Assembly (NCBI GenBank): GCA_963728565.1 | Contig: CAVSLC010000017.1 | Span: 1-60,179, forward strand | DNA length: 60,179 nt | From: an uncultured delta proteobacterium | GTDB taxonomy: Bacteria > Desulfobacterota > Binatia > UBA9968 | Direction of reading: 5' to 3' | Part shown: positions 1-38,099 of the stretch, one piece after another | How positions within the stretch are numbered: the stretch's first letter is position 1 | How the letters are laid out: each line of letters begins with the position of its first letter | Program-made: the position numbers and the translations under genes | The notes under the pieces: model-generated | What the model saw: the letters and a program-made list of their open reading frames with translations, nothing else | Database searches by the model: none | Told to the model about the DNA's origin: nothing

Positions 1-9
1 GAGAAACTT

Positions 10-2145
<2,136 letters not shown>

Positions 2146-2213
2146 TCATCCCTTATCCCATGGATGACCTTTGCACATGAAGGTAGGACGATCCTTACCT
2201 CTGCTGGCGGCTC

Positions 2214-2251
2214 CGTACTCCCGTTATCGCAGCAACGATAACGGGAGTACG
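2214..2251. terminator. Perfect 16-bp hairpin between convergent genes; probable bidirectional terminator or REP-like element
   Basis: CGTACTCCCGTTATCG-cagcaa-CGATAACGGGAGTACG. Confidence 0.6.
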
Positions 2252-2293
2252 TTCAAAGCCTTGAAATAAACGCGGCGGGTAATCACGACTAAG

Positions 2294-3119
2294 CTAGTTT
2301 GGCGGTCGTGTTGCGGATCTCAAGTAGTCAACTGGCTTGCGTGCAAAAAAGTTCACCCCCTGCACGTAAAGATCTATTGATAATTTGGCTTTGGCGGAGG
2401 TGCCTTCGTAACAATCGAAGCGCTCGACGATCCTGCCGTCGGCGAAACCAATTTGAGCACACAGCTGGTAAAGCTCCGCCTCCGGCAGAGCCCCGCCGAT
2501 TCAGGCGGCCCACAGATCGACATCGCTGCGCGCCGCCAGCGACAGCTCTCGCTGCACGACGACATCGGCCAGATAGAAGCGGCCGCCGGGACGCAGTACA
2601 CGATAGATCTCGCCAAACGAGCGAAGCTTGTCGGCGGATCAGATTGAGCACGCCGTTGGAGATAACGACATCGATGCTGTCGCTATCGACCGGCAGCTCT
2701 TCGGCCATGCCGCGCCGAATTTCAATGTTTTCCCAGAGGCCGGCTTTCACGGCGGCGCGCTTGGCGCGCTCGATCATGGCCGGCGTCATGTCGACGCCGA
2801 TGGCGCGACCTGTCGGGCCGGTTCGTCGCGCCGCCAGGAGTAAGTCCATGCCGGCGCCGCAGCCGACATCCAGGATCGTTTCTCCAGGCTCGATCGGCCC
2901 AATTCTCTGGGGATTGCCGACGCCGGCAAACGCTGCGGTGGAGTCCTCGGGAATTAACGCCAGTTCATGCGCATCATACCCCAGCGTTTGTGCGGCGTAG
3001 TGCGAGCCCCGATGAAAATGAAAGTTTGCTCCTGGCTCACGCGCCACCCGGTCGTACTCCGCTCGCACGAGCTGGCGCAACTTATCGACATTGAAGCCTA
3101 CCGGACATGTGGTAGCCAC
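2294..3119 (-). CDS. ArsM/AS3MT-like class I SAM methyltransferase; probable selenoprotein (UGA at 2503-2501) with one extra base near 2638
   Basis: LDVGCGAGMD and IGVDMTPAM SAM motifs, then DVVISNGVLNL. Removing one base gives DKLRSFGEIYRVLRPGGRFYLADVVVQRELSLAARSDVDLWAA-UGA-IGGALPEAELYQLCAQIGFADGRIVERFDCYEGT...VNFFARK to TAG at 2296-2294. Confidence 0.85.
2470..2494 (-). promoter_or_regulatory. Candidate bacterial SECIS element
   Basis: mRNA reads UGA-AUCGGC-GGGGCUCUGCC-GGA-GGCGGAGCUUU: a 10-11 bp stem with a small G-led apical loop beginning about 18 nt after the UGA. Confidence 0.75.
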
Positions 3120-3264
3120 GTGCTTATCTCCTTTCCGGGTTCGTGATCCATATTATTGCTTTGCCGATCCGCACGGGTCTCTCGCGGAGCGTAACCATAC
3201 GAAATGGCCGTGTAGATCAGCGCAAGCGCCAGCAGTAAAAATTCTTCGACGATCATGGTCGTGC

Positions 3265-3921
3265 TCATACAATGTCAGGCGGATGCCTGGAATTGGTTGA
3301 TTTTTTCGATGCCAAAGAGCTTCTTTTTCTGATTAGCTTCGATGCGCCTGGCTTTCGCAGCATCGGAAACAACGGCGGCGACGAGCCGACCTGAACTGTG
3401 CCGAGCAGCTCAAAGCCGTGCCGCTCATACAGCCGGAGGCTCTTAAGGCTCGTTGATTCCAGGTAAGCGAGTTTACCGTCTGCATCGCAGCGCGCCAACG
3501 CATGTTGCAGCAACGCCGAGCCATATCCTTTACCTTGTTGCTCCGGATCGACGCCGATCATGGGCAGATACCAGTGCGGCTCGGCCGGATGGTTACCGTC
3601 CATCTGTTCGAACAGCGCGAAGACGCCCGGCTGATCGCGCTCGGGAACGCTATGCCGCAGCAGCGTAAAGAGCGCGTCGTCGTCGGGATGGATACCCGGT
3701 GGGAGCCAGAGCGCCGCGGCTGAATAGCCGTCCACAAAATCCGCGCTTCGATGCTCGAAGGCAGCGCCGGCAAAGGCTTTGACGAAGCTGGGAAGATATT
3801 CCCAGTAATGCTGTGAATCAGGATACATCCAGCGTGCCACCGGGTCGGCGCTAAAGGCTCTCACTATGGCGCTGACGGCGGCATCCTGTTCGGCTGTTCC
3901 GACATTTTTGATCGTAATCAT
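3265..3921 (-). CDS. GNAT-family N-acetyltransferase
   Basis: AALWLPPG, HWYLPMIGVDPEQQGKGYGSALL (motif A), AYLES, LYERHGF. Start placed at ATG 3921 behind a GGAGAG RBS. Confidence 0.9.
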   Translation of the reverse strand: MITIKNVGTAEQDAAVSAIVRAFSADPVARWMYPDSQHYWEYLPSFVKAFAGAAFEHRSADFVDGYSAAALWLPPGIHPDDDALFTLLRHSVPERDQPGVFALFEQMDGNHPAEPHWYLPMIGVDPEQQGKGYGSALLQHALARCDADGKLAYLESTSLKSLRLYERHGFELLGTVQVGSSPPLFPMLRKPGASKLIRKRSSLASKKSTNSRHPPDIV

Positions 3922-4045
3922 TGCTTCTCTCCGTTTGGAATTGACGGACACTACGAAGGACAAGAAGCGCACCAGTTCTAGAGCTTCCCTCAGCGCTTGT
4001 TCCTTTCTGCGTCATGTGCTTCGTAGTGTAATCGTAAATACCCTT

Positions 4046-4618
4046 TCAACTTTCGACCTCGAGCTTGGCGTCGAGCCGCACCGGCTGCGAAACATTGAAG
4101 TAGTTCGGCGAGGTCTTAATTACGTTCTCATGGATCTCGCGAAACTGCTCCGGTGTGCCGTTGCCGGCGATGTGCACCACGTACTGGAGCGATTCATACC
4201 CGGCCTTGACTCTCGGGTCGATGCCAAGAAATCCGCGCAAGTCGAGCTGGCCGGTTGTCTCGATTTCGAGCTTAGTCAAAGTGATTCCATTGACCGCCGC
4301 GCCCGCCACATAGCCGACGGTGATGCAGGCGTTGAGCGCCGCCATCAGCAGCTCCTGCGGATTGGCAGAGGTGTTCTCGCCTAATAGCTCGAGCGGCTCG
4401 TCCGCGTTGATTGTGAAGCGACGTTTGATCTCCTTGCCGCCGAGCTTGTAGGATTCGACAGCCGTTTGCGAGCGGGTTTGTCCTTTCCAGCCGGTCTTGA
4501 CCTTGAATTCAACGATCCCTGTTGACGGATCCTTCTTCACCTCGTCAATGACGCCATGCAAGGCATCGACATCGAGCCCGTTCACAGTACCGATTTTTTT
4601 TGCTTCAAGTGCAGACAT
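4046..4618 (-). CDS. OsmC/Ohr-like protein with a single Cys
   Basis: ADEPLELLGENTSANPQELLMAALNAC, G.LDLRGFLG; the second-Cys position reads TSPN. Confidence 0.9.
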   Translation of the reverse strand: MSALEAKKIGTVNGLDVDALHGVIDEVKKDPSTGIVEFKVKTGWKGQTRSQTAVESYKLGGKEIKRRFTINADEPLELLGENTSANPQELLMAALNACITVGYVAGAAVNGITLTKLEIETTGQLDLRGFLGIDPRVKAGYESLQYVVHIAGNGTPEQFREIHENVIKTSPNYFNVSQPVRLDAKLEVES

Positions 4619-4668
4619 GGTAAAACTCCTTCTTGATTATGGTTTGTTGCGTTATGGTTTGTCTTTAA

Positions 4669-5580
4669 TTAGCAGAACGCCGGGGCCATAGCCTCAATCT
4701 GCTGTTTTGCCTCCGGCTTGATCGCCTCCACTGTAGCCAGGAAGTTCGGGTGGGTCATGCCCGTGCCTAGATACGTCCAGCGCATTCCCTTGAGCACCGC
4801 GTCTTTGACCTGCTCGCGCTCGCCCTTGGACAGGTTTCTCCCCGTTGCCTGGACGAAACTCTCCACGTCAAATTCAGCCTGCTGCCCGATCCCCTGGTCG
4901 ATAAACGCGCCGATCTCGCCGTACTCTTGAAAGGCCTGGTCGATCTCCTTAGCTGTCGAGCGCGCCACGATCTCCTCGACCATCAGCGTGTCGAGCTTGG
5001 TGTGCTGCGACTCCTCCAACCAGTGGTGCTTGAGCAGGCTCTTGAACTGCGGGTCGAGATCCTGGCTGTCCCGCACCCCTTCGATGTAGTGGCGCAAGGT
5101 GATCCACTCGATGTGCAGAATCGCGATGCCGGCCCCCAGCGGGCTATGCGACAGCACGAAGCGCTTGACGTCTTCAGCCGGGCCGATGAATTCACACTTG
5201 CTGCCGAAGCCTTCCTCGAACTCCTGCTTGAAGCGCTTGAACAGGTGGATGTGCTTGGCCTCTTCGCCGGCAAACTGCAGCAGCGCGCGCACGCGGTAGT
5301 CGTCGCCGGAAAGCTGCGGCCGCGCATGATCGACCACATAGGGAAGAATGAACTCTTCGACCAGGCCGAACATGGACAGATACTCGTGGCCGCGGATCTG
5401 ATTGAGTGTCAGTTGCTCTTCGGCCGTGAGAAACGACAGCTGCTTTACCTGGGCCAAGGACTCGGGCATGAACGGCTTATCAAAGTCGAGCTTCTTGTCA
5501 CCGCCGATTAGATCCTCCACTCTCCAACCGATTCGCTCCGATGCCGCCAGTGCCGTCTGATACGAGTAATTGTGTTGCAT
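4669..5580 (-). CDS. Ferritin-like (AurF-like) diiron-carboxylate protein
   Basis: Paired E...ExxH motifs: VEEF, GEEAKH, HIEW, LEESQH; GGAGA RBS. Confidence 0.8.
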   Translation of the reverse strand: MQHNYSYQTALAASERIGWRVEDLIGGDKKLDFDKPFMPESLAQVKQLSFLTAEEQLTLNQIRGHEYLSMFGLVEEFILPYVVDHARPQLSGDDYRVRALLQFAGEEAKHIHLFKRFKQEFEEGFGSKCEFIGPAEDVKRFVLSHSPLGAGIAILHIEWITLRHYIEGVRDSQDLDPQFKSLLKHHWLEESQHTKLDTLMVEEIVARSTAKEIDQAFQEYGEIGAFIDQGIGQQAEFDVESFVQATGRNLSKGEREQVKDAVLKGMRWTYLGTGMTHPNFLATVEAIKPEAKQQIEAMAPAFC

Positions 5581-5617
5581 GATTCATCTCCTTTCAAAGT
5601 TCGTTAACAGCCCTTAG

Positions 5618-5634
5618 AGCAGCTAGCGTGCCAG
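5618..5634 (-). promoter_or_regulatory. Sigma-54 (-24/-12) promoter
   Basis: Minus strand CTGGCACGCTAGCTGCT = GG-N10-GC, about 40 nt upstream of the ATG at 5580. Confidence 0.85.
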
Positions 5635-5699
5635 CAGACCCAGCTCGACTTGTTAAACAATTGTCGGCACTTAGAGAATGTGCAGCAGCGTCGCAACGT

Positions 5700-5750
5700 G
5701 TGAGATCTCACGACTCGCGAGATCTCACGTCGCCGGTTGTGAGATCTCGC
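5700..5750. promoter_or_regulatory. Three palindromic GYGAGATCTCRC sites; candidate upstream activator sequences for the adjacent enhancer-binding protein
   Basis: GTGAGATCTCAC 5700-5711, GCGAGATCTCAC 5717-5728, GTGAGATCTCGC 5739-5750; 65-115 bp upstream of the -24 box. Confidence 0.75.
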
Positions 5751-5900
5751 GTATCTAATCGGGTTCCGCAGTAGAGATTAACAATGTGTACTGATCAAGG
5801 GGGAGCCCGGAGGAGCGAAGGCACAGAGCGAATAAATTACGATGGCCGTCTAGGTGCTTGGTTCAGGGCTGCTAAGTTTCAGGAGTCCGCTGCCGCAGAC

Positions 5901-7856
5901 TCATCTCGGCCGCTGGATGCCCAGAGCGCGGATGCGGGAGTTAAGAGTAGACGGATTGATGCCGAGCATGCTGGCGGCGCCGTCCCTGCCGGCTACACGC
6001 CAGCCCGATGATTCGAGAGCGCGCAAAATGTTCTCTCGCTCCATTTGCTGAAGCTCGCGAATCGGTAGAATTCGCCGCGCCTGCTGCATCACGCCGTCCA
6101 CGGCCGGTACCGTTTCAGCAGCGACCTCCAAGGGGATTTCCGGCAGAGCCCGGTCAAGGTTGATAGACCCATCCCGGGAGGTAATCACAGCCCGCTCAAT
6201 CACATTCTGCAAGTTCGCGCACATTTCCCGGCCAGGAATAAGCCTTCAACCGTTTCTTGATCTCTTGTGAAAGAGGCTCGATGCGCTTACCCATTCGCTG
6301 CGCGAATTTAGCGGCAAACTCCGATGCCAGGATCACGACATCTTCGTTTCTTTCACGCAATGGCGGCACACTGATCGGAAATACGTTCAAACGATAGTAC
6401 AGGTCCTCACGAAAACGCCCTTCGCGTATCGCTTTTTTGAGATCGCGGTTGGTTGCCGCGATAACACGCACATTCACTTTGCGCAGACTGGGAGCCGCCC
6501 GACGGGAGTGAATTCGCCTTCCTGTAAAACCCGCAACAGCTTAGCCTGTAAATCGAGCGAAAGCTCGCCCACCTCATCGAGGAAAATCGTGCCGCCATCG
6601 GCCAAAGCAAAACATCCCTCGCGTCTCTGCGTCGCGCCGGTAAAGGCGCCCTTCTCATGCCCGAAAAACTCGCTTTCCATGAGCGCGGCTGGGATCGCGG
6701 CGCAGTTAATCGTGATCAGGGGCTTGTCGGCGCGGCGGCTGGCGCCGTGAATCGCCCTGGCGATCAATTCTTTGCCGGTGCCGGTTTCGCCAAGAACCAG
6801 GACCGTGGTGTCGCCGACCGCGACTTGCTCGACATCCTCCAGCACCGTTTTAAGCGCGGCGCTTTGCCCGATAATTTGCTCAAAGCCGCCAAGCTTGTTG
6901 AGCGCTTCACGCAGATATTCGGCTTCCGCGGTGAGAGAGTTAATTTTCCGGTCGGCTTCGAGCCGCTCATTGATGTTTCTCAAGATAACCGTGTAGAAGG
7001 TTTCCCTGCCGATTTCGAAGCACGAGATGGTGGCTTCCGCTGGAAACTCATTACCGCCGCTCGCCACTCCGCGTAATCCGCCCGGAACCCATGCAGAGCG
7101 GCGTTCCGGCGGGCACGGCTTGAACTCATCGATAAGCCTTAAAATTGTTTGATAACTCTTGGTTGAAACGAACCGACTGAATTCATCACCAACCGCCTGC
7201 CGCGCCGGACACTGAAATGCGTGCTCGGCGGCGGGGTTCACCCGGGTCACTTTGAGATTCTGATCAAGCTCGATAATCGCATCCATGGCGCTGTCAAATA
7301 AGCGCCGTAACTTCTCCTCGCGTTCTCGGAGCTGTTTTTCAACGCTTTGCCGTTGCAACTCGGCCGCGGCTCTGGCGGCAAAGATTTTAAATAGAGCCTG
7401 AACCTTGGGCTCTTCTGGAATTGGCCGTCGATCGATCACCGCAAGATGGCCGAGAATTTTGCCATCGACGTCTTTCAAAGGCATTCCCAGATAACTCACC
7501 GCGTTGATCGCGATTATGTCCGGATCGTCTGGAAAGAGTTTAAAAAGATTATCGGGAAAATGAACTATATCGGCGCTGTCGATCACTCTTTCACAAGGCG
7601 TGCCGGCAATATCGGTTTCATAATCTTGTATCCACTTCCCGTCCATCCAAAAGGCAAGGGCGCGCAGCCGGCGGCGTTCCTGGATGTATTCAGTGACCCA
7701 TGCGCCATGAGTGTTCAACGCTCGCGCCAGATTTTCAACTAGCGCGGCAAAAAACCGCTCGCCGGTCTCATTTGCGGTGCCTTCAAGTATAGTGCGAAGC
7801 GCGGACTCTTCATTCAGCTCAGCAAGGGGGGAAATTGCAGGGTCATGATTGATCAT
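5901..7856 (-). CDS. Sigma-54 enhancer-binding protein (GAF-PAS-AAA+-HTH, FhlA-like); two frameshifts near 6480 and 6200
   Basis: [49 protein letters not shown] and C-terminal [16 protein letters not shown], spread over three frames. Confidence 0.93.
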
Positions 7857-8010
7857 AAAAACACCTCGGCGGCCCTTGGGGATCGTAATACAGCCTGGGC
7901 TGCCTGGACCTCAGAACAGCCGTAATATCCGGGACCGACTTGCTTGTGTCAAGCGCCAGAACTGCCGTCTAACAGCGCTCAATCGGCTGGATCAGAACCT
8001 TGAACCGTAA

Positions 8011-8879
8011 TCACCGGCTGGTAATCGTCACGATGCCTGCGAACATGAGAAGCGCGCCGAAGACGATGCGCCGGTTGACCGTTTCCACTTTGCGCAGGAA
8101 AAGAACGCTCAAGAGCACGGTAAATAGCGGTGTGGTATTCAAGAGCGGAATAATCACCGACAACTCGCCTCTGCCTAAAGCGACAAAATTGAGGACTTGA
8201 GCCGCCGTTGCCACGCAGCGCCGCGGCGAAAAAAAATGAAAAACCCTGGCGTTCCATGCGCAGCGACTGGGCTCTGCCGGTAATCAGCACAAAAATCAAA
8301 AATAGAATTAGCGATACCGTGGTGACGATCGCTACGGCAACAAACGGATCGGGTAGAATTTTCAGTCCCTGCTTGCGCAAGCTTTGCGAGATAGCGGAAA
8401 CCAACGCCGCAGCTGATCGGGAAAGCGGTATCAAGAAGTCGCCACTTTGCCGCGCCGTCGTGCTGGCCGGAAATCAACCAGAGACTTGTCATAATCAGTA
8501 TCGTGCCCATATAAACCAGTGCGCCGGGCTCTTCGTGCAAAAAACTCACGCCAATAATCGTCGCAAATAACGGCTCAGTGCCGCGCAGCGGTCCGGCGCG
8601 AGCGACGCCGATTCGGGTAATGCCTTCATAGAACAGGGCTCGCGCCAGCAAAGGTTGCACGCAACCGCTGATGACGAAATAGAGCATCGCCGGCGAGGAC
8701 AGAAACTCGAGCGAGGTGGTGGCAATCAGGTAGCTCCACATGCAGGCGGTGGAGACCGCGAAGCTCATCAACATCGCCGCGAAGATATTCGATCGCCGTA
8801 AGCCCAGCCGGACCAGAACAGAATCGGAGGCCCAGCCCATGGCGGAGAAAATAGCTGTGATTTCAGCAAGTAGAGACAT
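8011..8879 (-). CDS. EamA/DMT family transporter (frameshifted near 8420 and 8215)
   Basis: Two hydrophobic repeats ending FLHEEP and PLFTVLLSVLFLRKVE...G. Confidence 0.8.
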
Positions 8880-9050
8880 GGGCGCGCCAAGATGCGGGAC
8901 GGTCCAGATAAGCCCACGTCCTGATTATTTGCAACCGCAAAAATTCGTGAAGCGCCGTGTTTCTTCGATCGTGTATTGCACAATAGCGACGACCTGACCT
9001 AGAATCGTGCCCGGTAGCCACGGAACAACCAACAACTAACAGGAGGAGTT

Positions 9051-9500
9051 ATGGAAAACGGCAAACAAACCGAAGCAAAAGTGGTTAAGCTGCGAACTCA
9101 ACTGGTAAAGGAAGGGCACACGCGCAACCTGCTGGCGGAAACAGATTTAATGACATTGCGTATCCATTGCTACGCCCCGGGCATCGGCGAGAACGCGCTC
9201 CACTCCCACACCAAAGAGGATCATATTTTCCTGGTTCTTGAAGGAACCGCTGAATTCAACACCGGGCGCGACGGCAAAACCGTTCTCAACGCGAGCAAGC
9301 ATCAAGCGATCGTTCTTCCGGCGGGTTGCTACTACCAGTTTCGCAATTCCGGAGATACCCCTCTGGTGATGACTCGAATCGGCGCCGGTCCGGACAAACA
9401 GGATCAGCGTCTTAACCCGGACGGCACACCGATTCCTGGAAGAACTCACGAGCAAGGCGCGGCCAAGCCGGTGCTGATTGAAGGAGCTTTTTTCGAATAG
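9051..9500 (+). CDS. Cupin-domain protein
   Basis: ENALHSHTKEDHIFLVLEG and LPAGCYYQFRN; AGGAGG RBS. Confidence 0.88.
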   Translation: MENGKQTEAKVVKLRTQLVKEGHTRNLLAETDLMTLRIHCYAPGIGENALHSHTKEDHIFLVLEGTAEFNTGRDGKTVLNASKHQAIVLPAGCYYQFRNSGDTPLVMTRIGAGPDKQDQRLNPDGTPIPGRTHEQGAAKPVLIEGAFFE

Positions 9501-9582
9501 TGTGATGGGATTTACAGAAGGCAATTACCCGCAGAAACCCAGACCGGAACCGCGGCATCGCGGCGATGCCGCAGTTCATTGT

Positions 9583-9789
9583 TCAAGCTATTTTCATGCG
9601 CTCGATGGTAACCTGAAGCTTCCTCAGCTCGGTCACCAACGATTCGTGCTTCAGCCGGTGCCGCGCAAGATGCGGCTTCAAAAGTGAACTGGGATAAATC
9701 TTGGCGCCACACTCGACGCACTTTGCCGCATCCAATTTCTTGTCGGCAATTGATATCGCCACCCGGTCGCTCGCCAGTGCTGTTCGCAT
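9583..9789 (-). CDS. 68-aa protein with a C2H2 zinc-finger signature and C-terminal helix
   Basis: AAGGAG RBS and ATG at 9789; CVECGAKIYPSSLLKPHLARH = C-x2-C-x12-H-x3-H. Confidence 0.7.
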   Translation of the reverse strand: MRTALASDRVAISIADKKLDAAKCVECGAKIYPSSLLKPHLARHRLKHESLVTELRKLQVTIERMKIA

Positions 9790-9827
9790 GTGCAGTCTCC
9801 TTGATTGAAAAGTTGGAACGGTCATTG

Positions 9828-9844
9828 AGCAATGCTGATGCCAA
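9828..9844 (-). promoter_or_regulatory. Sigma-54 promoter of the zinc-finger ORF
   Basis: Minus strand TTGGCATCAGCATTGCT (GG-N10-GC). Confidence 0.7.
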
Positions 9845-10050
9845 TAGCATCTTGCGAATTCACGCAAGCGGTGATGCGGGTTTTTGATTCCGTTAACGTT
9901 AGATCCGGTTCTTCCCCTGCTCGATCTGACAGTAATCGTATGACATCCTGACAACCTGTCACGATTGGATGCCGGCCGCGATTCCGCTGATAAAACGCGG
10001 ATGCAGTTACCGAAAATGGGGATCGGCTGGGGGCAGATGCGCGGCGGCGC

Positions 10051-11028
10051 TCAGGAATGAGCCAATAACTTCTTCACCGATTGGACAATTCGCTTCTGGC
10101 CAGGGAGAAATTCTTTCTCCAATGCCGGGCTGGCGGGAACCGGCGCGAACGGCGCCGCGACACGCAGAATTGGCGCGTCCAAATAGTAAAGCGCATGTTG
10201 TTGAACTGCAGCGGTAATCTCCGCGCCCACCCCGCCCTGTTCCACGGCTTCGTGCGCGACAACCATGTGCCCGGTCTTTCTGACCGATTCGACAATAGTT
10301 CCGATATCCAGAGGTGAAACGCTGCGCGGGTCGATCACCTCCGCGGAAATTCCGCTGGCGGCCAATTCATCGGCTGCCGCCAATGCCGTGCCCACCATAT
10401 TTGCCAGCGCGACAATAGTGACTTGTTCTCCGGCATGCAGAACCGCCGCCTGGCCGATCGGCACCAGATGATCATCGTTCGGCACGTCGCCGCGGCCCCA
10501 GTACAAACCACGATGCTCAATAAAGACCACCGGGTTGTCGTCGCGAATGGCGGCCTTGAGCAGCCCTTTGGCGTCTGCGGGATTTGACGGCATCACAACC
10601 TGCAATCCCGGAACATGCGCCAGCCACGACTCCAGGCTTTGTGAATGATGCGCGCCCATGGCGCCGCTGATGCCGCATTGCACCCGCACAGTTAACGGAA
10701 TCGCGAGCTGGCCGCCGGACATGTAATAGAGCTTGGCCGCGTGATTAACCAGTTGATCGAGAGCGAGCGTGATGAAATCGATGAACATGATCTCAATCAC
10801 CGGGCGCAATCCTGCCGTAGCGGCGCCAATGGCCAACCCCATGACCGTGCCTTCGCTGATCGGCGTGTTGACCACGCGTTGGGTCCCGAAATCTTCCGCC
10901 AATCCTTTGGTGACGCCAAACGGTCCGCCGAGTGAAACGTCTTCGCCGAAAACGTAAACCGCCGAGTCGCGGCTCATCTCTTCGTGAAGTCCGGCGCGAA
11001 TCGCTTCTAAAAAAGTCTGCTCTGGCAT
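10051..11028 (-). CDS. 2-oxoacid/acetoin dehydrogenase E1 beta subunit
   Basis: FGEDV, NTPISE, GLRPVIEIMFIDF, GAHHSQSLE, EVIDPRSVSPLD; start trimmed to MPEQTF. Confidence 0.93.
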   Translation of the reverse strand: MPEQTFLEAIRAGLHEEMSRDSAVYVFGEDVSLGGPFGVTKGLAEDFGTQRVVNTPISEGTVMGLAIGAATAGLRPVIEIMFIDFITLALDQLVNHAAKLYYMSGGQLAIPLTVRVQCGISGAMGAHHSQSLESWLAHVPGLQVVMPSNPADAKGLLKAAIRDDNPVVFIEHRGLYWGRGDVPNDDHLVPIGQAAVLHAGEQVTIVALANMVGTALAAADELAASGISAEVIDPRSVSPLDIGTIVESVRKTGHMVVAHEAVEQGGVGAEITAAVQQHALYYLDAPILRVAAPFAPVPASPALEKEFLPGQKRIVQSVKKLLAHS

Positions 11029-11110
11029 ATTAGATTGGTTTCCAATGTTGAAGAAGAGCTTGCTACTTCCACACGGGTTTCGTCGACGACATTGTCCCGG
11101 ACCCTGGGAA

Positions 11111-12103
11111 TCACCTAAAAAAGGGTTGAGAGTTAATTGTCGTAACTTGAGTCGCGACTTCCTCACTGGCTGGCCACGATGATGAGAGGGAAAAGCCGGC
11201 GGCTTCTTCAACCCGGGCGCGGGCTTCAGATTCAATCGCTTGAAGTCCCTTGTCTGTGATCATTTTCTTGCTTTTTAGCAGGCGCGCGAATCTGGCAATC
11301 GGATCTTTCTTCTTCCACTCGGAAAGTTGCGACAACTCTCGATATTTGGCGGGGTCGCCTTCATAATGGCCGCGCAGCCGATGCGTTAAACATTCGATAA
11401 ATACCGGTGCTTTGCGTGCGCGTGCGATCTCGAGCGCCTTGCTTGTCGCCGAACGCACGGCTAAGAGATCGTTGCCGTCCACCGTGCTGCTGGGAATCTC
11501 ATAAGTCTTTGCATGCTGCGCCAACCGCTCGACCTTCGTATGCGCCGATAACGGTGTGAACTCCGCATAACCATTGTTCTCGCACACGAAGATCACCGGT
11601 AACTGCCACAAGCTGGCGATGTTCAAAGACTCATGAAACGGACCCGCTTGGCCGGCGCCATCGCCGAAAAAAACCACGGCGACTTGGCCTTGTTTTTTTT
11701 CTTTGGCGGCGAATGCTGCGCCGAGCGCCAACGGTATCGTTCCACCGACCACCCCGGTGGCCGTGATGAAGCCCGCATCCAGCGCGACGATGTGCATCGA
11801 GCCGGCCTTGCCGCCGCAGTAGCCGGTGGCTCGACCGGCGATTTCCGCCATCAGCCGATTGACATCCGCTCCTTTGGCCAGGGCGTGACCGTGAGAGCGA
11901 TGCCCGCCGAATACGAAATCGTTCTGGCGCAGCAAACCGCAGACGCCGACCGCAACCGCTTCTTGGCCGATGCCCAGGTGAAGCAGGCCGACAATCTGCC
12001 TTTCGGCGTAAAGCGCCGAGACCTTTTCCTCAAAAGCGCGAATCAACCACATGCGCCTTAGGAGATCGACGAGATCCTTTGAGCTTTCTTGTTTGCTGGC
12101 CAT
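11111..12103 (-). CDS. 2-oxoacid/acetoin dehydrogenase E1 alpha subunit
   Basis: HLGIGQEA, HRSHGH, GSMH, GDGA...ENN TPP motif, RLRGHYEGD. Confidence 0.93.
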   Translation of the reverse strand: MASKQESSKDLVDLLRRMWLIRAFEEKVSALYAERQIVGLLHLGIGQEAVAVGVCGLLRQNDFVFGGHRSHGHALAKGADVNRLMAEIAGRATGYCGGKAGSMHIVALDAGFITATGVVGGTIPLALGAAFAAKEKKQGQVAVVFFGDGAGQAGPFHESLNIASLWQLPVIFVCENNGYAEFTPLSAHTKVERLAQHAKTYEIPSSTVDGNDLLAVRSATSKALEIARARKAPVFIECLTHRLRGHYEGDPAKYRELSQLSEWKKKDPIARFARLLKSKKMITDKGLQAIESEARARVEEAAGFSLSSSWPASEEVATQVTTINSQPFFR

Positions 12104-12292
12104 GATCAGGAGCTGAGTGAAAACTAATGTGGAATCGGATAAGACGATCTCACCACGGAGGACATGTAGGATTCAGAATTTCATCGGCTTTAACTGTGAG
12201 CTCTTCGCAGTTAACTGACTAGTCTGATCGGTCGACGCTCTGCTGCGCCGAATACCTGCTACTGGCATTGATACCGTTATCGGCCAAGAAGC

Positions 12293-13264
12293 TTATGCCA
12301 CCGCTGCGCGGATCGCATCAACGATGCGATCGTCTCGCGGGCCGATGTATTCTTCCAATGGCGGGCTGAAGGGCACCGGCACATCCAGAGTGCAGACTCG
12401 GCGAATGCGCGTCTTCAACTTATCGAAACCGCTCTCGGCTATGCGCGCGGCGATTTCGGCAGCGACTCCGCAACTCTGATGCGTCTCGTCGACGAGCACC
12501 ACGCGATGGGTTTTCTCGATTGAGGACAGGATGGTTGCCAGGTCGAACGGCACCAGCGTCCGCGGATCGATGACCTCGACGTCGATGTTCTCTTTGGCCA
12601 GCTGGTCGGCAACTTTGAGACAGCGCTGAATCGTGTATGAGGTTGCGATCACCGTCACGTCGCCGCCCTTGCGTTTGATGTCTGCGACACCGAATGGAAT
12701 CGGCTTTTCGTCTTCGGCAACTTCACCGCGCACGTCCAGAAGCTTAACGTGATCGACAAAGATCGTCGGGTTGTCAGTGGAAACGGCTGTCTTGAGCAGA
12801 CCTTTAACATCGCGCGGCGTAGATGGAAGCACGATCTCCAAACCAGGCACATTCCACAGCATCGCCTGGGGGCTGCCGGAATGCTGTGCCGCGCCACCGC
12901 CGCGGAGTCCGTGAAATATATGGAAGACCACCGGCACCCGGGTCTGGCCACCCGACATGTAATAAGCGTTGGCCGCTTCATTGGCGACTTGCGGCCACGC
13001 CTCATAGATGAAGCTACCGGTGCTCAGATCGACGATGGGACGGAGACCGGCCATCGCCGCTCCCGTGGCCAGCCCGCAGAAGCCAAGTTCGGAAATAGGC
13101 GGCGAGATCATGCGCTCCCGGTATTTCTGCAGAAGGTTCTGATAGACGTGGCGGTGCGGGCTCAGGCTCAGGAACGTGCCATTGATCAAGTGCACTCGCC
13201 CATCGCCGGCCATAATTTCGTCCAATGCCTCGAACTTCGCTTCGTAATAGTTTAGCTCTCTCAT
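12293..13264 (-). CDS. Divergent E1 beta subunit
   Basis: PISELGF, GLRP, AAQHS, EVIDPRTLVPFD. Confidence 0.9.
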   Translation of the reverse strand: MRELNYYEAKFEALDEIMAGDGRVHLINGTFLSLSPHRHVYQNLLQKYRERMISPPISELGFCGLATGAAMAGLRPIVDLSTGSFIYEAWPQVANEAANAYYMSGGQTRVPVVFHIFHGLRGGGAAQHSGSPQAMLWNVPGLEIVLPSTPRDVKGLLKTAVSTDNPTIFVDHVKLLDVRGEVAEDEKPIPFGVADIKRKGGDVTVIATSYTIQRCLKVADQLAKENIDVEVIDPRTLVPFDLATILSSIEKTHRVVLVDETHQSCGVAAEIAARIAESGFDKLKTRIRRVCTLDVPVPFSPPLEEYIGPRDDRIVDAIRAAVA

Positions 13265-13413
13265 ATAAGGTCCTCAGGCTGCTCTTGGAAAAGATGGATT
13301 ATGAAAGCTGAAAACTGACTTCCGATTTCAGATTTCCGCTTTCATCCTTGTAACTCGCCCGTCTTGCATCTGGGTCTTTTTGAACAGCCTGTCAACATTT
13401 CCTCGAAGTTAAA

Positions 13414-14433
13414 TTAGGCGAAGAAGTCGCGCTCTGCTTCTTCGGGTTTCGGATAGGGGCTAGCCACCGCAAACTCGAAGGCAGCGCCGATTTCGGTTTT
13501 GACTTGCTGTTCCATGCCGGCGATCTCTTGACGGCTGGCGTGATTCGCATCCACCAATTCGCGAATGTAAATCAGCAACGGATCGCAGGTGCGGTACCAT
13601 TCGCGCACTTTCTCGGGAACGTTGCTGACATCCCACGCCAGCGAGCTATCGGTAGGCTGCGCCACTGCCGGCCAGTTGGTCTCGCTGCCTGGCCAGCGCA
13701 CAGTCTGCGCCTCGACAAATTGCGGCCCTTCGCCGTGGCGAATTTTTTCCACTGCTTGGGAAATTGTTGCATGCACAAGCCCGGAATCCAGGCCATCGAT
13801 CTGCTGCGCGGGAATTTTGTAAGCCGCCGGTAAGTCGGTTAAAGGATAAGCCGCCATGGATGAGGACTGCGCCGCCGCCGTGGCACGACCGCTGCCATAC
13901 TTGCCGTTGTTCTCGCACAGGAAGAGCACCGGCAATTTGTAGAGTGATGCCAGATTGAACGCTTCCGGCGCCGCTCCTTCCTCCAACGCGCCGTCGCCGA
14001 ACAGGCAAACCGTAATCCGGCCGTTCTTTAGCGCCTTGGCGGCGTAAGCCGTACCGGTCGACAGCGGGATTATACCGGCCACCACTCCCGAGCTATGAAG
14101 AAATCCCAGAGAGGGCGCCACCGAATGGAAGGAGCCGCCTTTGCCTTTGTTGAGGCCGTCGGCGCGTCCCAAAATTTCGGCGCACAACCGTTTGGGGTCA
14201 GCGCCGCGCGCCAATAAATGGCCGTGGTTCCTGTGAGTAGTGAAGAGATAATCATCTGCACCTAGGCAGGACAACGCCGGCACGCCGGTGGCCTCCTGGC
14301 CGATGTACAAATGATAGTGACCGCTGAAAACACCCCGGTCATGCAGCGGCACCAGATTTTCTTCAAAATGACGGATCGTGAACATCCGCCGGCACAAATC
14401 CAATAACGCCTCGCGCGGTAAATTGGGTAACAT
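13414..14433 (-). CDS. Divergent E1 alpha subunit
   Basis: HLYIGQEA, HRNHGH, GKGGSFH, GDGA...ENN; start trimmed to MLPNLP. Confidence 0.9.
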   Translation of the reverse strand: MLPNLPREALLDLCRRMFTIRHFEENLVPLHDRGVFSGHYHLYIGQEATGVPALSCLGADDYLFTTHRNHGHLLARGADPKRLCAEILGRADGLNKGKGGSFHSVAPSLGFLHSSGVVAGIIPLSTGTAYAAKALKNGRITVCLFGDGALEEGAAPEAFNLASLYKLPVLFLCENNGKYGSGRATAAAQSSSMAAYPLTDLPAAYKIPAQQIDGLDSGLVHATISQAVEKIRHGEGPQFVEAQTVRWPGSETNWPAVAQPTDSSLAWDVSNVPEKVREWYRTCDPLLIYIRELVDANHASRQEIAGMEQQVKTEIGAAFEFAVASPYPKPEEAERDFFA

Positions 14434-14540
14434 GAGCCTGAGATAATCAAAAGGCTTTGCTTTGTCAATGTCGAATGATTGACAACATTTTGATATCGCG
14501 ACTATATCCGGATAGATGAAGTGCTCAGGAGGGATCATCG

Positions 14541-31454: not shown

Positions 31455-32453
31455 ATGAACACTCTGAGCCGCAGAATACTCGGTGCGATACCGGTCTTAC
31501 TGGGCATTTCGTTTCTGGTTTTCATGCTCATGCATATCGCTCCGGGAGATCCGGTATCGTTGCTCCTCGGCGACGATGCCACGCCGGCGGATATCGAACA
31601 GACCCGTCGCGAGTTAGGCCTCGACCAGCCCCTCCTGGTGCAGTATTGGGATTTTTTGTCGCGCGCGGTTCGAGGCGACTTCGGCAGATCGCTCAAGTTT
31701 AACGAACCTGTGATGAAGTTGGTTTTTGAGCGGCTACCGGCCACGATAGAGCTTGCTTTTATCAGTTTGATTGTCGCCATCATTATCGCCGTACCCCTGG
31801 GCGTCTACTCCGCTATCAAACACAACTCGCTCTTTGATCATGCCGGGATGAGCGTTGCGCTTATCGGCGTTTCATTACCCAATTTCTGGCTGGGAATTAT
31901 GCTGATCTATTTTCTCGGGGGACAACTCAATCTGTTGCCCGTCGCCGGACGGATTGAGTACGGCATCGAGGTGAAGCCGATCACCCATCTCTATCTAATA
32001 GACAGCCTGATCACCGGAAATTTTACCGCCTTTTGGAGCGCGCTCCAGCACCTTCTGATGCCGGCCTTTACCCTGGGCACGAGCCTGGCCGCGATTGTTA
32101 CCCGGATCTCGCGTTCGAGCGTTCTTGAAGTTATGCGGCAGGATTTCATTACCACCGCACGGGCCAAGGGGTTGAGTGAAAAAGACGTCATCTGGCGGCA
32201 CATATTGCGCAATGCGATGATCACGATTGTGACCATTCTCGGTCTCCAGCTAGGCGCTCTGCTGAATGGTTCCGTGATCACGGAAACCGTGTTCTCATAT
32301 CCCGGCATCGGCGAATTGTTGATTCAGTCGATCTCAGCCCGAGATTACAAGCTAACGCAGGTGCTGATTTTGTTCTTCGCGGTTATTTACTTCGTGGTGA
32401 ATTTACTGACCGATTTTCTCTATAGCTGGATCGATCCAAGGATAAAATTCTGA
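31455..32453 (+). CDS. Peptide/nickel ABC permease (DppB-like)
   Basis: PGDP, LGLDQP, TARAKG, ITETVFSYPGIG, DPRI. Confidence 0.95.
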   Translation: MNTLSRRILGAIPVLLGISFLVFMLMHIAPGDPVSLLLGDDATPADIEQTRRELGLDQPLLVQYWDFLSRAVRGDFGRSLKFNEPVMKLVFERLPATIELAFISLIVAIIIAVPLGVYSAIKHNSLFDHAGMSVALIGVSLPNFWLGIMLIYFLGGQLNLLPVAGRIEYGIEVKPITHLYLIDSLITGNFTAFWSALQHLLMPAFTLGTSLAAIVTRISRSSVLEVMRQDFITTARAKGLSEKDVIWRHILRNAMITIVTILGLQLGALLNGSVITETVFSYPGIGELLIQSISARDYKLTQVLILFFAVIYFVVNLLTDFLYSWIDPRIKF

Positions 32454-33292
32454 TGATCGGCTTAAAGCATTTGAAGATCTGGGTCGGCGGCATTATTTTG
32501 GCGGCCCTCTTCGTTTGCGGTGTCGCCTCACCTCTGTTGGCGCCGCATGATCCACAGGCGCAAACGCTCGAAGATCGGTTGCGGCCGCCGCGCTGGGCCG
32601 AGAATGGTTCACCGGCCTATTTGTTGGGCACAGACAATCTGGGCCGGGATATCCTAAGCCGGATCATCTATGGGTCCCGCATCTCATTATTGGTCGGCGC
32701 CGCAACCGTCATCTTTGCGGGTTTGATCGGTTGCACCTTGGGAGCGGTCGCGGGTTACTTCGGAAAACTTGCCGACGATATCGTCAGCAAAATCTCCGAA
32801 ATTTTTCTCGCCTTTCCATTTCTGCTAATCGCCATAGCCATCATGGCCTTCCTGGGACAGGGCGTGGTCAACCTCATCATGGCGCTCATGCTTAGCCGCT
32901 GGGTCCAATACTGCCGCGTCGTACGCGGCGAGGTGCTGTCGTTGAAGGAGCGTGATTTTGTCACGGCGATCAAGGCCCTGGGCGGTCGAGACGGTTATGT
33001 TCTGCTCCGTCACGTGGTGCCGAATACGGTTGCCAGCATCACCGTGATCGCAACCTTCGCCATGGCAATCGTTATCATATCCGAAGCGAGTTTGAGCTTT
33101 CTCGGACTCGGCGTGCCGGCGCATATCCCAACCTGGGGCTCGATGCTGAGCGAGGGCAGGAGTTATATCAATCGCGCTCCATGGCTGACGATTTTCCCGG
33201 GTCTGGCCATTTTTATCACGGTATTTGGCATCAATCTTTTAGGAGACGGCTTGAGAGATATCTTCGACCCGAAATTGCGCAGACAGAGATAA
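32453..33292 (+). CDS. Peptide/nickel ABC permease (DppC-like)
   Basis: LGTDNLGRD, EASLSFLGLG, PTWG, GDGLRD. Confidence 0.95.
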   Translation: MIGLKHLKIWVGGIILAALFVCGVASPLLAPHDPQAQTLEDRLRPPRWAENGSPAYLLGTDNLGRDILSRIIYGSRISLLVGAATVIFAGLIGCTLGAVAGYFGKLADDIVSKISEIFLAFPFLLIAIAIMAFLGQGVVNLIMALMLSRWVQYCRVVRGEVLSLKERDFVTAIKALGGRDGYVLLRHVVPNTVASITVIATFAMAIVIISEASLSFLGLGVPAHIPTWGSMLSEGRSYINRAPWLTIFPGLAIFITVFGINLLGDGLRDIFDPKLRRQR

Positions 33293-33318
33293 CAACAGTC
33301 CGGATCTAGGAGGATCGA

Positions 33319-34857
33319 ATGGCTAGTAGAAAAACCGATGTCAGCCGTAGAAAGTTTTTGAAGAGGAGCGCCGCCTTGGGTGTCGGGGCAACGGTATGGC
33401 CAGGATTGTTGCGCCGCGCGTCGGCGGCCTCACGGGACCGCGTCGTGATTTATCACAGCAGCGTCGCCGATTCGATTCATCCTTATAATCATAGCTCCAG
33501 CCCGATCTATGGGAACTGGCAGCATGTCATCGAGCCGCTGGTGGAGCTGGATTACGACAAAAAAGAGTACGTCGGTGTCCTCGCCGAGTCATGGGAGTTT
33601 CAGGGCAAGCAGTGGGTGTTCAAGCTGCGCCAAGGCGTCAAATTTCATAACGGCGCTCCACTGACGTCCAAGGATGTGGCGTTCTCGATTGAGCGGATGC
33701 GAGATGAGAAGGGCGGCAGCTTGCAGGCGCCCAACTTCAAGGATGTCACGGAGGTGCAGACGCCGGACGATCAAACCGTCGTGTTCGTGACCAAACAACC
33801 ATTGGCGATTTTCTTGGATCGCTTGGAGAACCGTTTCATTCTCAGCAAAGTCGCCGGGGATAAGTTCGGCGATCAGCTCTATCAAAACCCGATCGGCACG
33901 GGTCCTTATAAGTTCGTCAGCTATCAGCGCGGCGGCAACATGGTGTTTACCCGCAATGACGATTACTGGGGAGGCAAGGCAGCGATCAAAGAAGTAGTTT
34001 TTCGCAAAGTGACGGAAGAAGCGGCCCGATTAGCGGCGTTGGAATCCGGTCAGGCGGACTTCATCAATAATGTTCCGGTACATGAGGTTGCCCGCTTCCA
34101 AAAACACCCCCGCGTAAGAATCGACAAGTTAGAAGGGTTGAGAATGTTTTTGTTGGCGATGAATGTCGCGCATAAGCCATTCGACAACAAACTGGTTCGC
34201 CAGGCGGTCAACTATTCCGTCGATGCGCCTGCTATCGTCAAGAATATTTTCGACGGCATCGGCTACCCGCTCAACGGGCCGGTCGGCTCCAATGTCATCG
34301 GCGCGGATCCGAAACACAAGCGTTATCCGTACGATCCTAAGAAAGCACGAGAGCTTCTCGCGCAAGCGGGATATACGGACGGCTGCGATGTTCAGCTTTA
34401 TTACTCACCCGGGCGTTATCCCAAAGACCGCGAAGTTTGTCAGGTGGTTGCGGCGCAGATGGTGAAGGGCGGTTTCAGAGTCGAGTTGATCTCGCAAGAG
34501 TGGGCGCTTTTTTGGGACAAGACGGGGGTCAACGGCGGCAGGTTGCCGTTCTACTACATCGGCCGCGGCTCGCTCACGGACGCTGACACGCTTTACGATC
34601 AGTACTTCCGAACCGGCACGACGAAGCGCACGAATTACAGCAATCCGGAACTGGACAAGATCATCATAGAACAGCAAAAAACAGCGGACCCGAAAAAACG
34701 GATCGCGCTGTTACAGCAAGCCGGGAAGATCATCATGGAAGAAGCTCCCATGGTGCCGCTCTACAATTTAGCCGACATCTATGGTGTCGCTAGAAATGTC
34801 GTGTGGAAAATGCGGCCGGATGAAAAAGTTCTCGCTTGGGATATGAAAATCAAGTAA
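33319..34857 (+). CDS. Family-5 ABC substrate-binding protein, Tat signal (paralogue 1)
   Basis: SRRKFLK, LAESW, VKFHNG, GTGPYK, VRQA. Confidence 0.93.
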   Translation: MASRKTDVSRRKFLKRSAALGVGATVWPGLLRRASAASRDRVVIYHSSVADSIHPYNHSSSPIYGNWQHVIEPLVELDYDKKEYVGVLAESWEFQGKQWVFKLRQGVKFHNGAPLTSKDVAFSIERMRDEKGGSLQAPNFKDVTEVQTPDDQTVVFVTKQPLAIFLDRLENRFILSKVAGDKFGDQLYQNPIGTGPYKFVSYQRGGNMVFTRNDDYWGGKAAIKEVVFRKVTEEAARLAALESGQADFINNVPVHEVARFQKHPRVRIDKLEGLRMFLLAMNVAHKPFDNKLVRQAVNYSVDAPAIVKNIFDGIGYPLNGPVGSNVIGADPKHKRYPYDPKKARELLAQAGYTDGCDVQLYYSPGRYPKDREVCQVVAAQMVKGGFRVELISQEWALFWDKTGVNGGRLPFYYIGRGSLTDADTLYDQYFRTGTTKRTNYSNPELDKIIIEQQKTADPKKRIALLQQAGKIIMEEAPMVPLYNLADIYGVARNVVWKMRPDEKVLAWDMKIK

Positions 34858-34927
34858 GCGTTCTTCAATGCTGAAACTCTATGCGCACTCTTTGCCGCTC
34901 TGCTAGTCGGGCCGACGGGAGGGCACC

Positions 34928-36460: not shown

Positions 36461-36514
36461 AAAATTGACTAGGCAATGCTGGTAGACATTACAACTGCCA
36501 AGTGGAGGAATCGA

Positions 36515-38047: not shown

Positions 38048-38099
38048 CCCGACGAAATCTATCTCGGCGGCGCCACAGGTGTTACTGGAAAGGGTTGTA

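Follow-up and report, generated by a model that had tools for sequence, protein, structure and literature searches.

A 60,179-nt stretch (positions 1–60,179, forward strand) of contig CAVSLC010000017.1 (assembly GCA_963728565.1) of an uncultured delta proteobacterium, hereafter the window, carries a five-gene cassette on its minus strand; coordinates refer to the whole stretch unless a locus label precedes them. In order, the genes encode a sigma-54 enhancer-binding activator, a diiron protein, an OsmC-fold protein, a GNAT acetyltransferase and an ArsM-like methyltransferase, separated by gaps of 320, 50, 124 and 145 bp. An earlier note on this DNA had described five co-oriented genes in this order, which open reading frames (ORFs), Pfam matches and coordinates confirm. 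Tentatively, and with confidence a little short of even, the locus may be an inducible chemical-defence or detoxification cassette built around a stand-alone N-oxygenase-type enzyme with interchangeable helpers, in which the core enzyme would act on a toxic amine or hydroxylamine by oxidising its nitrogen. The closest relatives carry the labels Candidatus Binatia or uncultured delta proteobacteria, and the public runs that contain the stretch are for the most part soil metagenomes.

The constant core of the cassette is the activator gene, its promoter and the diiron gene. The activator gene (5901–7856, minus strand) was assigned from Pfam (GAF, PAS_8, Sigma54_activat and HTH_8) and from intact relatives of 640–680 amino acids (aa), typically about 650 aa; the domain order is GAF, PAS, AAA+ with an intact GAFTGA motif and a Fis-type helix-turn-helix. 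Upstream of the diiron gene lies a -24/-12 sigma-54 box (5619–5633, minus strand), preceded by three predicted palindromic activator sites with the consensus RYGAGATCTCRY at 5739–5750, 5717–5728 and 5700–5711, that is, about -120, -98 and -81 from the -24 box. The promoter comparison covered 34 of the 37 closest loci, leaving out L002 (a duplicate of L001) and two loci, L036 and L037, which have a different upstream gene and lack such a promoter. In 33 of the 34, a -24/-12 box stands ahead of the diiron gene with two or three palindromes near -120, -98 and -81, and the layout is retained in L004, L006, L019 and L031, where the fetched flank shows no activator gene. Matrices derived from relatives only pick out a single instance of the layout in the host genome (4.5 Mb), the one at the cassette, and none in one shuffled copy; with no further promoter of the kind in that genome, there is no wider regulon. 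The earlier note's description of a self-contained sigma-54 unit holds, and the activator probably binds the three palindromes. The sigma factor gene rpoN was not found in the host assembly, which is 80.6% complete, and is present in all 24 family relatives.

The activator shares with NifA, NorR and FhlA the AAA+ domain with GAFTGA, the Fis-type helix-turn-helix and palindromes placed 80–120 bp upstream of a -24/-12 box. It differs from them in its GAF-PAS input and its own palindrome, and the piece of the protein scored, that of the window, falls far below each of their equivalog cut-offs. Residues C88, H99 and H137 of the GAF domain are found in 27 of 29 aligned rows, two of the rows being unrelated ATPases, and are kept in true orthologues. 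The GAF domain falls in generic GAF clusters in the Atlas and has no match in the Protein Data Bank (PDB), and the PAS region gives a weak match to FixL, so no ligand can be assigned to either.

Related regulators lie elsewhere. The host itself encodes a paralogous PAS-GAF sigma-54 activator (G000:C5:199004–201394), whose GAF domain is 43% identical to that of the cassette and which lies near genes named by eye from their sequences as UbiD-like decarboxylase, cupin dioxygenase and TenA/PqqC-like. In the acidobacterial locus L221 (G502:C2:1056000–1071000), at least two activator-like genes stand between the diiron gene and a divergent OsmC gene. At L176:2613–4655, and at similar metagenome loci, a hybrid histidine kinase adjoins a member of a distant diiron clade; its GAF domain is related to that of the window activator and has a TPC motif in common with it, which hints at a shared inducer.

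The diiron gene (4669–5580, minus strand) encodes a ferritin-like protein of 303 aa, assigned to the AurF/CmlI type from a structure model and its ligand set. The model has a predicted local distance difference test score (pLDDT) of 96.8. When it was compared with 48,161 representative chains, CmlI (Z-score 19.9) and AurF (19.5) came out on top, leading the next families, ribonucleotide reductase R2 (15.9) and R2lox (15.8), by about 4 Z, with root-mean-square deviations of 3.7–3.8 Å across 265–275 residues. The rubrerythrin, Mn-catalase and Dps folds reach no more than Z 7.7–9. The predicted ligands E75, E107, H110, E158, H186, E190 and H193 form a 3-His/4-Glu set, assigned by sequence spacing against the motif E..ExxH..E..HxxxExxH rather than by residue-level superposition; all seven occur together in 79 of 103 aligned rows. 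This spacing agrees with the motif that the available part of one source gives for DnfA, AurF and CmlI, with DnfA ligands at E88/E123/H126/E182/H209/E213/H216 (PMC9478400). By the same measure, the second-sphere acids E106 and E189 correspond to D135 and D226 of AurF. The 3-His/4-carboxylate mode is described, in the portion of the source available, as largely unique to N-oxygenases, CylC halogenases having three histidines too (PMC12101540). The fold match to CmlI and AurF and this ligand spacing are the reasons for favouring an N-oxygenase-type reading, and they narrow the earlier note's ferritin-like diiron enzyme to the AurF/CmlI 3-His type. The Pfam family of AurF, PF11583, is matched by 66 of 103 diiron family members at E ≤ 0.001. 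The protein therefore looks like an N-oxygenase at its metal site, yet it is not placed in the AurF family; it would load iron and catalyse O2-dependent N-oxygenation.

With AurF, CmlI and DnfA (PDB 2JCD and 5HYH; PF11583) the cassette enzyme has the fold and the 3-His/4-Glu spacing in common. Unlike them, it is found without natural-product scaffold genes and without a linked ferredoxin or reductase such as DnfB, and its neighbours are OsmC, GNAT, methyltransferase or flavin adenine dinucleotide (FAD) oxidase genes. A second ferritin-like protein, which has 215 aa, contains ExxH motifs and matches nothing in Pfam or NCBIfam, is encoded near the cassette at L004:11612–12259, at L019:8304–8951 and in six further close loci.

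The genes around this core were surveyed in the best 80 of 205 relatives from one-per-species genomes, comprising the 35 closest loci and 45 others. Among the 35, the activator is present in 28, OsmC in 12, GNAT in 11 and the selenocysteine methyltransferase in 10. The commonest downstream partner is a FAD/berberine-type oxidase (15 of 35), and EamA (8), the second ferritin-like gene (8), a DsrE-like gene (6) and an acyl-CoA-dehydrogenase-like gene (3) also recur; all five window genes stand together in four. Gene order, and even the OsmC subtype, differs among loci. The other 45 loci hold OsmC in 14 and GNAT in eight, with neither the activator nor the selenocysteine methyltransferase in any. 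GNAT-diiron-OsmC arrangements occur in Acidobacteria, and OsmC stands beside the diiron gene in Nostoc and in Alphaproteobacteria (Novosphingobium).

A gene-neighbourhood check seeded with the diiron protein, as the earlier note had proposed, finds that the genes co-occur. Across 41 genomes, the host and 40 kin, which overlap the 80 loci and are not independent of them, OsmC adjoins the diiron gene at 11 of its 12 places and GNAT at 8 of its 10, the remainder lying on contig pieces with the methyltransferase. The methyltransferase itself, at 65% identity or more, adjoins it at 8 of 12 places. The places of these genes that are not next to the diiron gene fall on short contigs or where a contig ends. 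Orthologues of the three proteins thus occur almost only in the cassette. A second diiron clade, about 32% identical, was sampled through the best 80 of 557 metagenome matches, of which 45 are flanked on each side by 700 bp or more. In nine of the 80 the next gene downstream is a Cys-form methyltransferase, and in three it is OsmC; a related GAF region is nearby in 13, and belongs to a histidine kinase in the one case examined. The diiron gene often adjoins a sensor or regulator of varying type. In a tree made by a quick method from 110 rows (177 before 85% dereplication), and used only for its two deep clades, both deep diiron clades have OsmC and methyltransferase neighbours. Seven long ORFs join diiron and OsmC domains and were considered as natural fusions; because each of the five looked up is known from one contig only and several contain out-of-frame stretches, they were counted as adjacency. 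In two RNA runs there are contigs over the cargo genes, some of them spanning the gap between OsmC and GNAT or that between GNAT and the methyltransferase; they come from relatives, and DNA carry-over is possible, so they do not demonstrate a transcript, and the low coverage of the activator gene was given no weight. On the preferred reading, the cassette genes would be co-transcribed.

The last gene (2294–3119, minus strand) encodes an ArsM-like class I S-adenosylmethionine (SAM) methyltransferase with a core of about 262 aa, assigned by family search and alignment to relatives. It has the class I SAM-binding motifs, as it matches Methyltransf_31 (E 1.2e-21) and can be aligned to CmArsM. An in-frame TGA (2501–2503, minus strand), in the context W-A-A-U-I-G-G, falls in a UxxG motif aligned to CmArsM Cys224. 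The TGA is found in 10 of 10 close orthologues, each with about 55 conserved residues in frame behind it. In the alignment of the site, 12 rows, the window included, have TGA, and all eight distant homologues that cover it have Cys. A candidate bacterial selenocysteine insertion sequence hairpin (2473–2491, minus strand), proposed on its folding energy, begins 10 nt after the TGA and has an 8-bp stem and a GGA loop. Its energy is -8.6 to -13.6 kcal/mol in 12 of 12 TGA forms and 0 to -4.4 in 8 of 8 Cys forms. Covariation is thin: there is one two-sided change, in L201, and none in 11 close sequences, where pairing is 95.5%, and the stem sits in conserved coding sequence. The host encodes selA, selB, selD and tRNA-Sec. 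As the TGA is conserved, is replaced by Cys in homologues, is followed by the hairpin in TGA forms only and occurs in a host with selABD, its reading as selenocysteine (Sec) is well supported, and so is the probable selenoprotein methyltransferase of the earlier note. Sec is not in itself new here, since UxxG selenoprotein forms of ArsM are already listed in the available part of PMC13188914.

The methyltransferase shares a sequence family with ArsM/AS3MT (CmArsM; NF008823), and its Sec takes the Cys224 position as in the UxxG forms (NF041536, NF041537 and NF047649). Unlike ArsM, it has Val and Gly in place of Cys72 and Cys174 and lies outside any ars operon. Residues C5, U206 and C236 are conserved, C5 and C236 in nearly all sequences. 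By the definition given in the accessible text of PMC5552862, ArsM has at least three of four Cys at CmArsM positions 44, 72, 174 and 224; here Val stands at 72, Gly at 174 and Sec at 224, and 44 lies outside the printed alignment, giving at most two of four. It differs from the UxxG ArsM forms in its single Sec and in having no fused AhpD, DUF2284 or UXPK domain, and it falls below all four family cut-offs; against NF008823/PRK11873 the intact relative L018, read through the TGA, scores 220.8 with a cut-off of 263 bits. A structure model of L018 built with eight sequences has a mean pLDDT of 62.8, and the regions of C5, U206 and C236 are in or adjoin low-confidence segments, so the model gives no information on whether these residues meet. 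TGA-containing paralogues, 54–56% identical and without a diiron gene, are found at L209:4940–6231 and L208:5069–7041.

These features bear on the best-surviving alternative, in which As(III), Sb(III), Se or Te would be methylated via C5, U206 and C236 and the diiron enzyme would oxidise the toxic trivalent methylated product. The best solved relatives of the methyltransferase are arsenite methyltransferases, with Sec on Cys224, and in the host assembly it is the one strong ArsM-family match (142 bits vs 65 and 59). One paralogue faces an ArsI/CadI gene (scoring above its cut-off) near a CzcA pump, another follows an SBF-family transporter that we read as Acr3-type, the methyltransferase-diiron pair recurs in both deep clades, and C5 and C236 are kept in nearly all sequences. 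The missing equivalents of Cys72 and Cys174 speak against arsenic, however, Cys174-Cys224 being the arsenic-binding pair of ArsM according to the available text of PMC6138428, as does the score below the PRK11873 cut-off. Moreover, no ArsR, Acr3, ArsC or ArsH family appears among the recurrent neighbour clusters listed (top clusters only), and 14 of the 23 close loci whose flanks are complete have no methyltransferase, which leaves metalloid methylation-oxidation unlikely. A broader proposal, which we hold to be unlikely to the same degree, is a widespread and as yet undescribed heteroatom-detoxification pathway. In it, the diiron enzyme and the ArsM-like methyltransferase would act sequentially on the same natural toxin, which might be a hydroxylamine, a thiol or an organic arsenic or selenium compound; a new Cys5/Sec206/Cys236 centre would replace the ArsM cysteines, the one-Cys OsmC would stand in for the ferredoxin on which AurF-type enzymes ordinarily depend, and the GAF domain found in activators and histidine kinases by the diiron gene would sense the toxin.

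The OsmC-fold protein (4046–4618, minus strand; PF02566) has 190 aa and a single Cys, C98. Residues C98, S170 and P171 are present in 24 of 24 aligned sequences, Ser-Pro replacing the resolving Cys of OsmC/Ohr; in terms of sequence position, E89, a candidate for the catalytic Glu of those peroxidases, is invariant, and R66, a candidate for their catalytic Arg, occurs in 22 of the 24. The closest structure, 2OPL, is a hypothetical protein with the same Ser-Pro. The protein resembles Ohr/OsmC peroxidases in its fold and in the placing of the first Cys in the usual helix, and differs from them in lacking the resolving Cys. The hallmark of that family, in the part of the source available, is a catalytic Cys pair about 60 residues apart (PMC5384416), and C98 stands alone. 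The OsmC-related (seleno)protein model NF041052 gives 46.2 bits with a cut-off of 95. The earlier note was accordingly right to call this a one-Cys OsmC, and its assignment of a reducing step is made doubtful by the same 24 sequences. The GNAT acetyltransferase (3265–3921, minus strand; PF00583) has puromycin N-acetyltransferase (PDB 7K09) as its closest solved relative, matching over the full length (E 3.3e-17); the similarity is distant and the substrate is not transferable. An amine theme is favoured because this relative is an amine-inactivating resistance enzyme. Six Acidobacteria (L042, L043, L045, L050, L052 and L053) encode, a few genes after the diiron gene in the downstream direction, a FAD protein that by eye resembles sarcosine oxidase, which agrees with that theme.

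The OsmC fold also invites a second alternative, a general oxidant or electrophile stress toolkit in which the diiron protein would be a sink for peroxide or reactive species and not a substrate oxygenase. An RclR-like Cupin_6 AraC regulator family in 12 of 98 loci (one member scoring 106.8 with a cut-off of 400), a DJ-1/PfpI gene adjoining one locus, the conserved GAF Cys88 and a catalase flanking the window and three close loci are all consistent with it. We consider it improbable: the third His marks substrate N-oxygenases, as far as the available part of PMC12101540 goes, the OsmC lacks the Cys pair by which the accessible text of PMC5384416 defines Ohr/OsmC peroxidases, the rubrerythrin, Mn-catalase and Dps folds gave the low Z-scores noted above, and the catalase is convergent and found in the closest kin only. 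Quite improbable, too, is thiol or persulfide handling, by S-methylation at Sec followed by diiron S-oxygenation, with OsmC and the DsrE-like protein as sulfur carriers. The DsrE-like genes, the acyl-CoA-dehydrogenase-like genes with their sub-cut-off DszC/SfnB similarity, and two proteins with a single reactive Cys or Sec centre would suit it; the DszC/SfnB matches are weak, however, FadE16 and HsaA score higher, there are no sulfide-oxidation genes among the recurrent clusters, and GNAT is left without a role. A minimal biosynthetic cluster that makes nitro, nitroso or azoxy products from a metabolite with a primary amine, with GNAT for self-protection and EamA as exporter, would accord with AurF and CmlI being biosynthetic enzymes, with cargo of typical tailoring folds and with EamA standing downstream in close loci, but is very unlikely given that no scaffold-building gene recurs, that cargo content and order are shuffled among close kin and that many loci consist of a regulator and a diiron gene only.

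Under the preferred reading of an inducible cassette around an N-oxygenase-type enzyme, the activator would sense a small molecule or its reactive product through its GAF/PAS region, bind the three palindromes and open the sigma-54 promoter. The first and sole constant target would be the AurF/CmlI-type diiron enzyme, most likely an O2-dependent oxidase of the nitrogen in a toxin that is an amine or a hydroxylamine. Downstream genes would be drawn from a shared pool and have parallel or clean-up roles rather than forming ordered steps of one pathway. GNAT would cap amines by N-acetylation, the ArsM-like enzyme would methylate a soft nucleophile at its Sec/Cys centre, and the one-Cys OsmC-fold protein might either be a thiol partner or trap some reactive product. 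In other genomes the cargo is instead a FAD oxidase, a DsrE-like, SnoaL-like or acyl-CoA-dehydrogenase-like gene or an EamA exporter. The earlier note had named a small thiol, chalcogen, metalloid or amine compound as the substrate; the AurF/CmlI 3-His type favours an amine, or a hydroxylamine, for the core enzyme, and disfavours the other three classes.

Several observations weigh against this reading. Amine N-oxygenation usually yields a more reactive product, which fits detoxification poorly. There is no substrate evidence of any kind: what computation shows is the genes, how the promoter is laid out, the Sec codon, the fold with its ligands, the linkage and the changing cargo, and we infer the detoxification role, every substrate and every chemical step. 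The identity of the diiron protein to AurF and CmlI is 10–12%, its PF11583 match is weak (22.3 bits vs a gathering score of 29.6), and a PDB sequence search with the protein or its profile gave nothing significant. Foldseek, when ordered by E-value, puts an R2-like ligand-binding oxidase first and AurF at rank 35, though none of the TM-scores shown exceeds that of AurF (0.64). A scan of the ORFs in 178 loci for a ferredoxin motif, with a minimum length of 90–100 aa, found none, a size limit that shorter ferredoxins would escape, so the electron source of the enzyme is unexplained. The role of the lone OsmC Cys is likewise unexplained, as is the recurrence of a Sec-methyltransferase beside an N-oxygenase-type enzyme; that methyltransferase fits the amine theme badly, and its paralogues lie by the ArsI/CadI, CzcA and SBF-family genes described above. 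Linkage has its own limits, given the overlap between the 41 genomes and the 80 loci. OsmC, GNAT and methyltransferase are all missing from the fetched flank in 11 of the 23 close loci with full flanks, and many diiron loci, including most tree tips, are without any of these partners. Together with the rarity of the full five-gene set, these absences do not bear out the earlier note's module of oxidation, reduction, acetylation and methylation as a fixed four-step pathway.

In this assembly, single-base insertions near 6212, 6488 and 6498 break the activator gene into three pieces, and another near 2640 splits the methyltransferase gene, all by comparison with the intact relatives L018 and L012. 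The extra bases at 2640, 6488 and 6498 are absent from public-run contigs (6212 is not among the rows shown), and similar single-base indels affect the flanking catalase and EamA genes. Since relatives and public-run contigs lack the extra bases and the flanking genes share the type of indel, these breaks are most likely assembly errors. The HPII-type catalase gene (144–2145) and the EamA gene upstream of the activator (7979–8879) are split by several single-base indels relative to their relatives; the contig is rich in indels, and broken ORFs on it are therefore not to be taken for pseudogenes. Among the flanking genes, those for catalase, EamA, cupin and E1 were considered as cassette parts and rejected, as they accompany it in close kin only and lie outside the promoter unit. 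Rfam gave zero matches in window positions 1–12500, and the result of a sigma-70 promoter and terminator scan was at chance level. Further along, positions 10051–14538 hold two successive 2-oxoacid dehydrogenase E1 alpha/beta-like pairs, the first of which was scanned, while the ORFs of 230 aa or longer include neither an E2 nor an E3 gene, and positions 31455–39632 hold peptide ATP-binding cassette permeases followed by four similar tandem substrate-binding proteins of 510–523 aa.

Each part of the cassette belongs to or resembles a known fold, and Sec-containing ArsM-like proteins are already described. As a whole, the cassette, which has the anatomy of an inducible unit in which one sensor and one conserved promoter serve a constant first gene followed by helpers that can be exchanged, appears to be undescribed: a literature search, with subscription journals largely outside its scope, returned no description of it, nor of OsmC, diiron and AurF together, and the earlier note's failure to recognise a characterised pathway stands. 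The diiron family represents a large uncharacterised AurF/CmlI-type branch outside natural-product clusters and without a linked reductase, with 1,301 representatives (50% clustering, E ≤ 0.001). The compact activator-promoter unit, with its fully mapped operator, could be transferred to a reporter strain for an inducer screen that would point to the substrate. The ArsM-like Sec/Cys subfamily without the arsenic-binding pair may be annotated too readily as arsenic-methylating in soil metagenomes, or could instead reveal another route of metalloid methylation.

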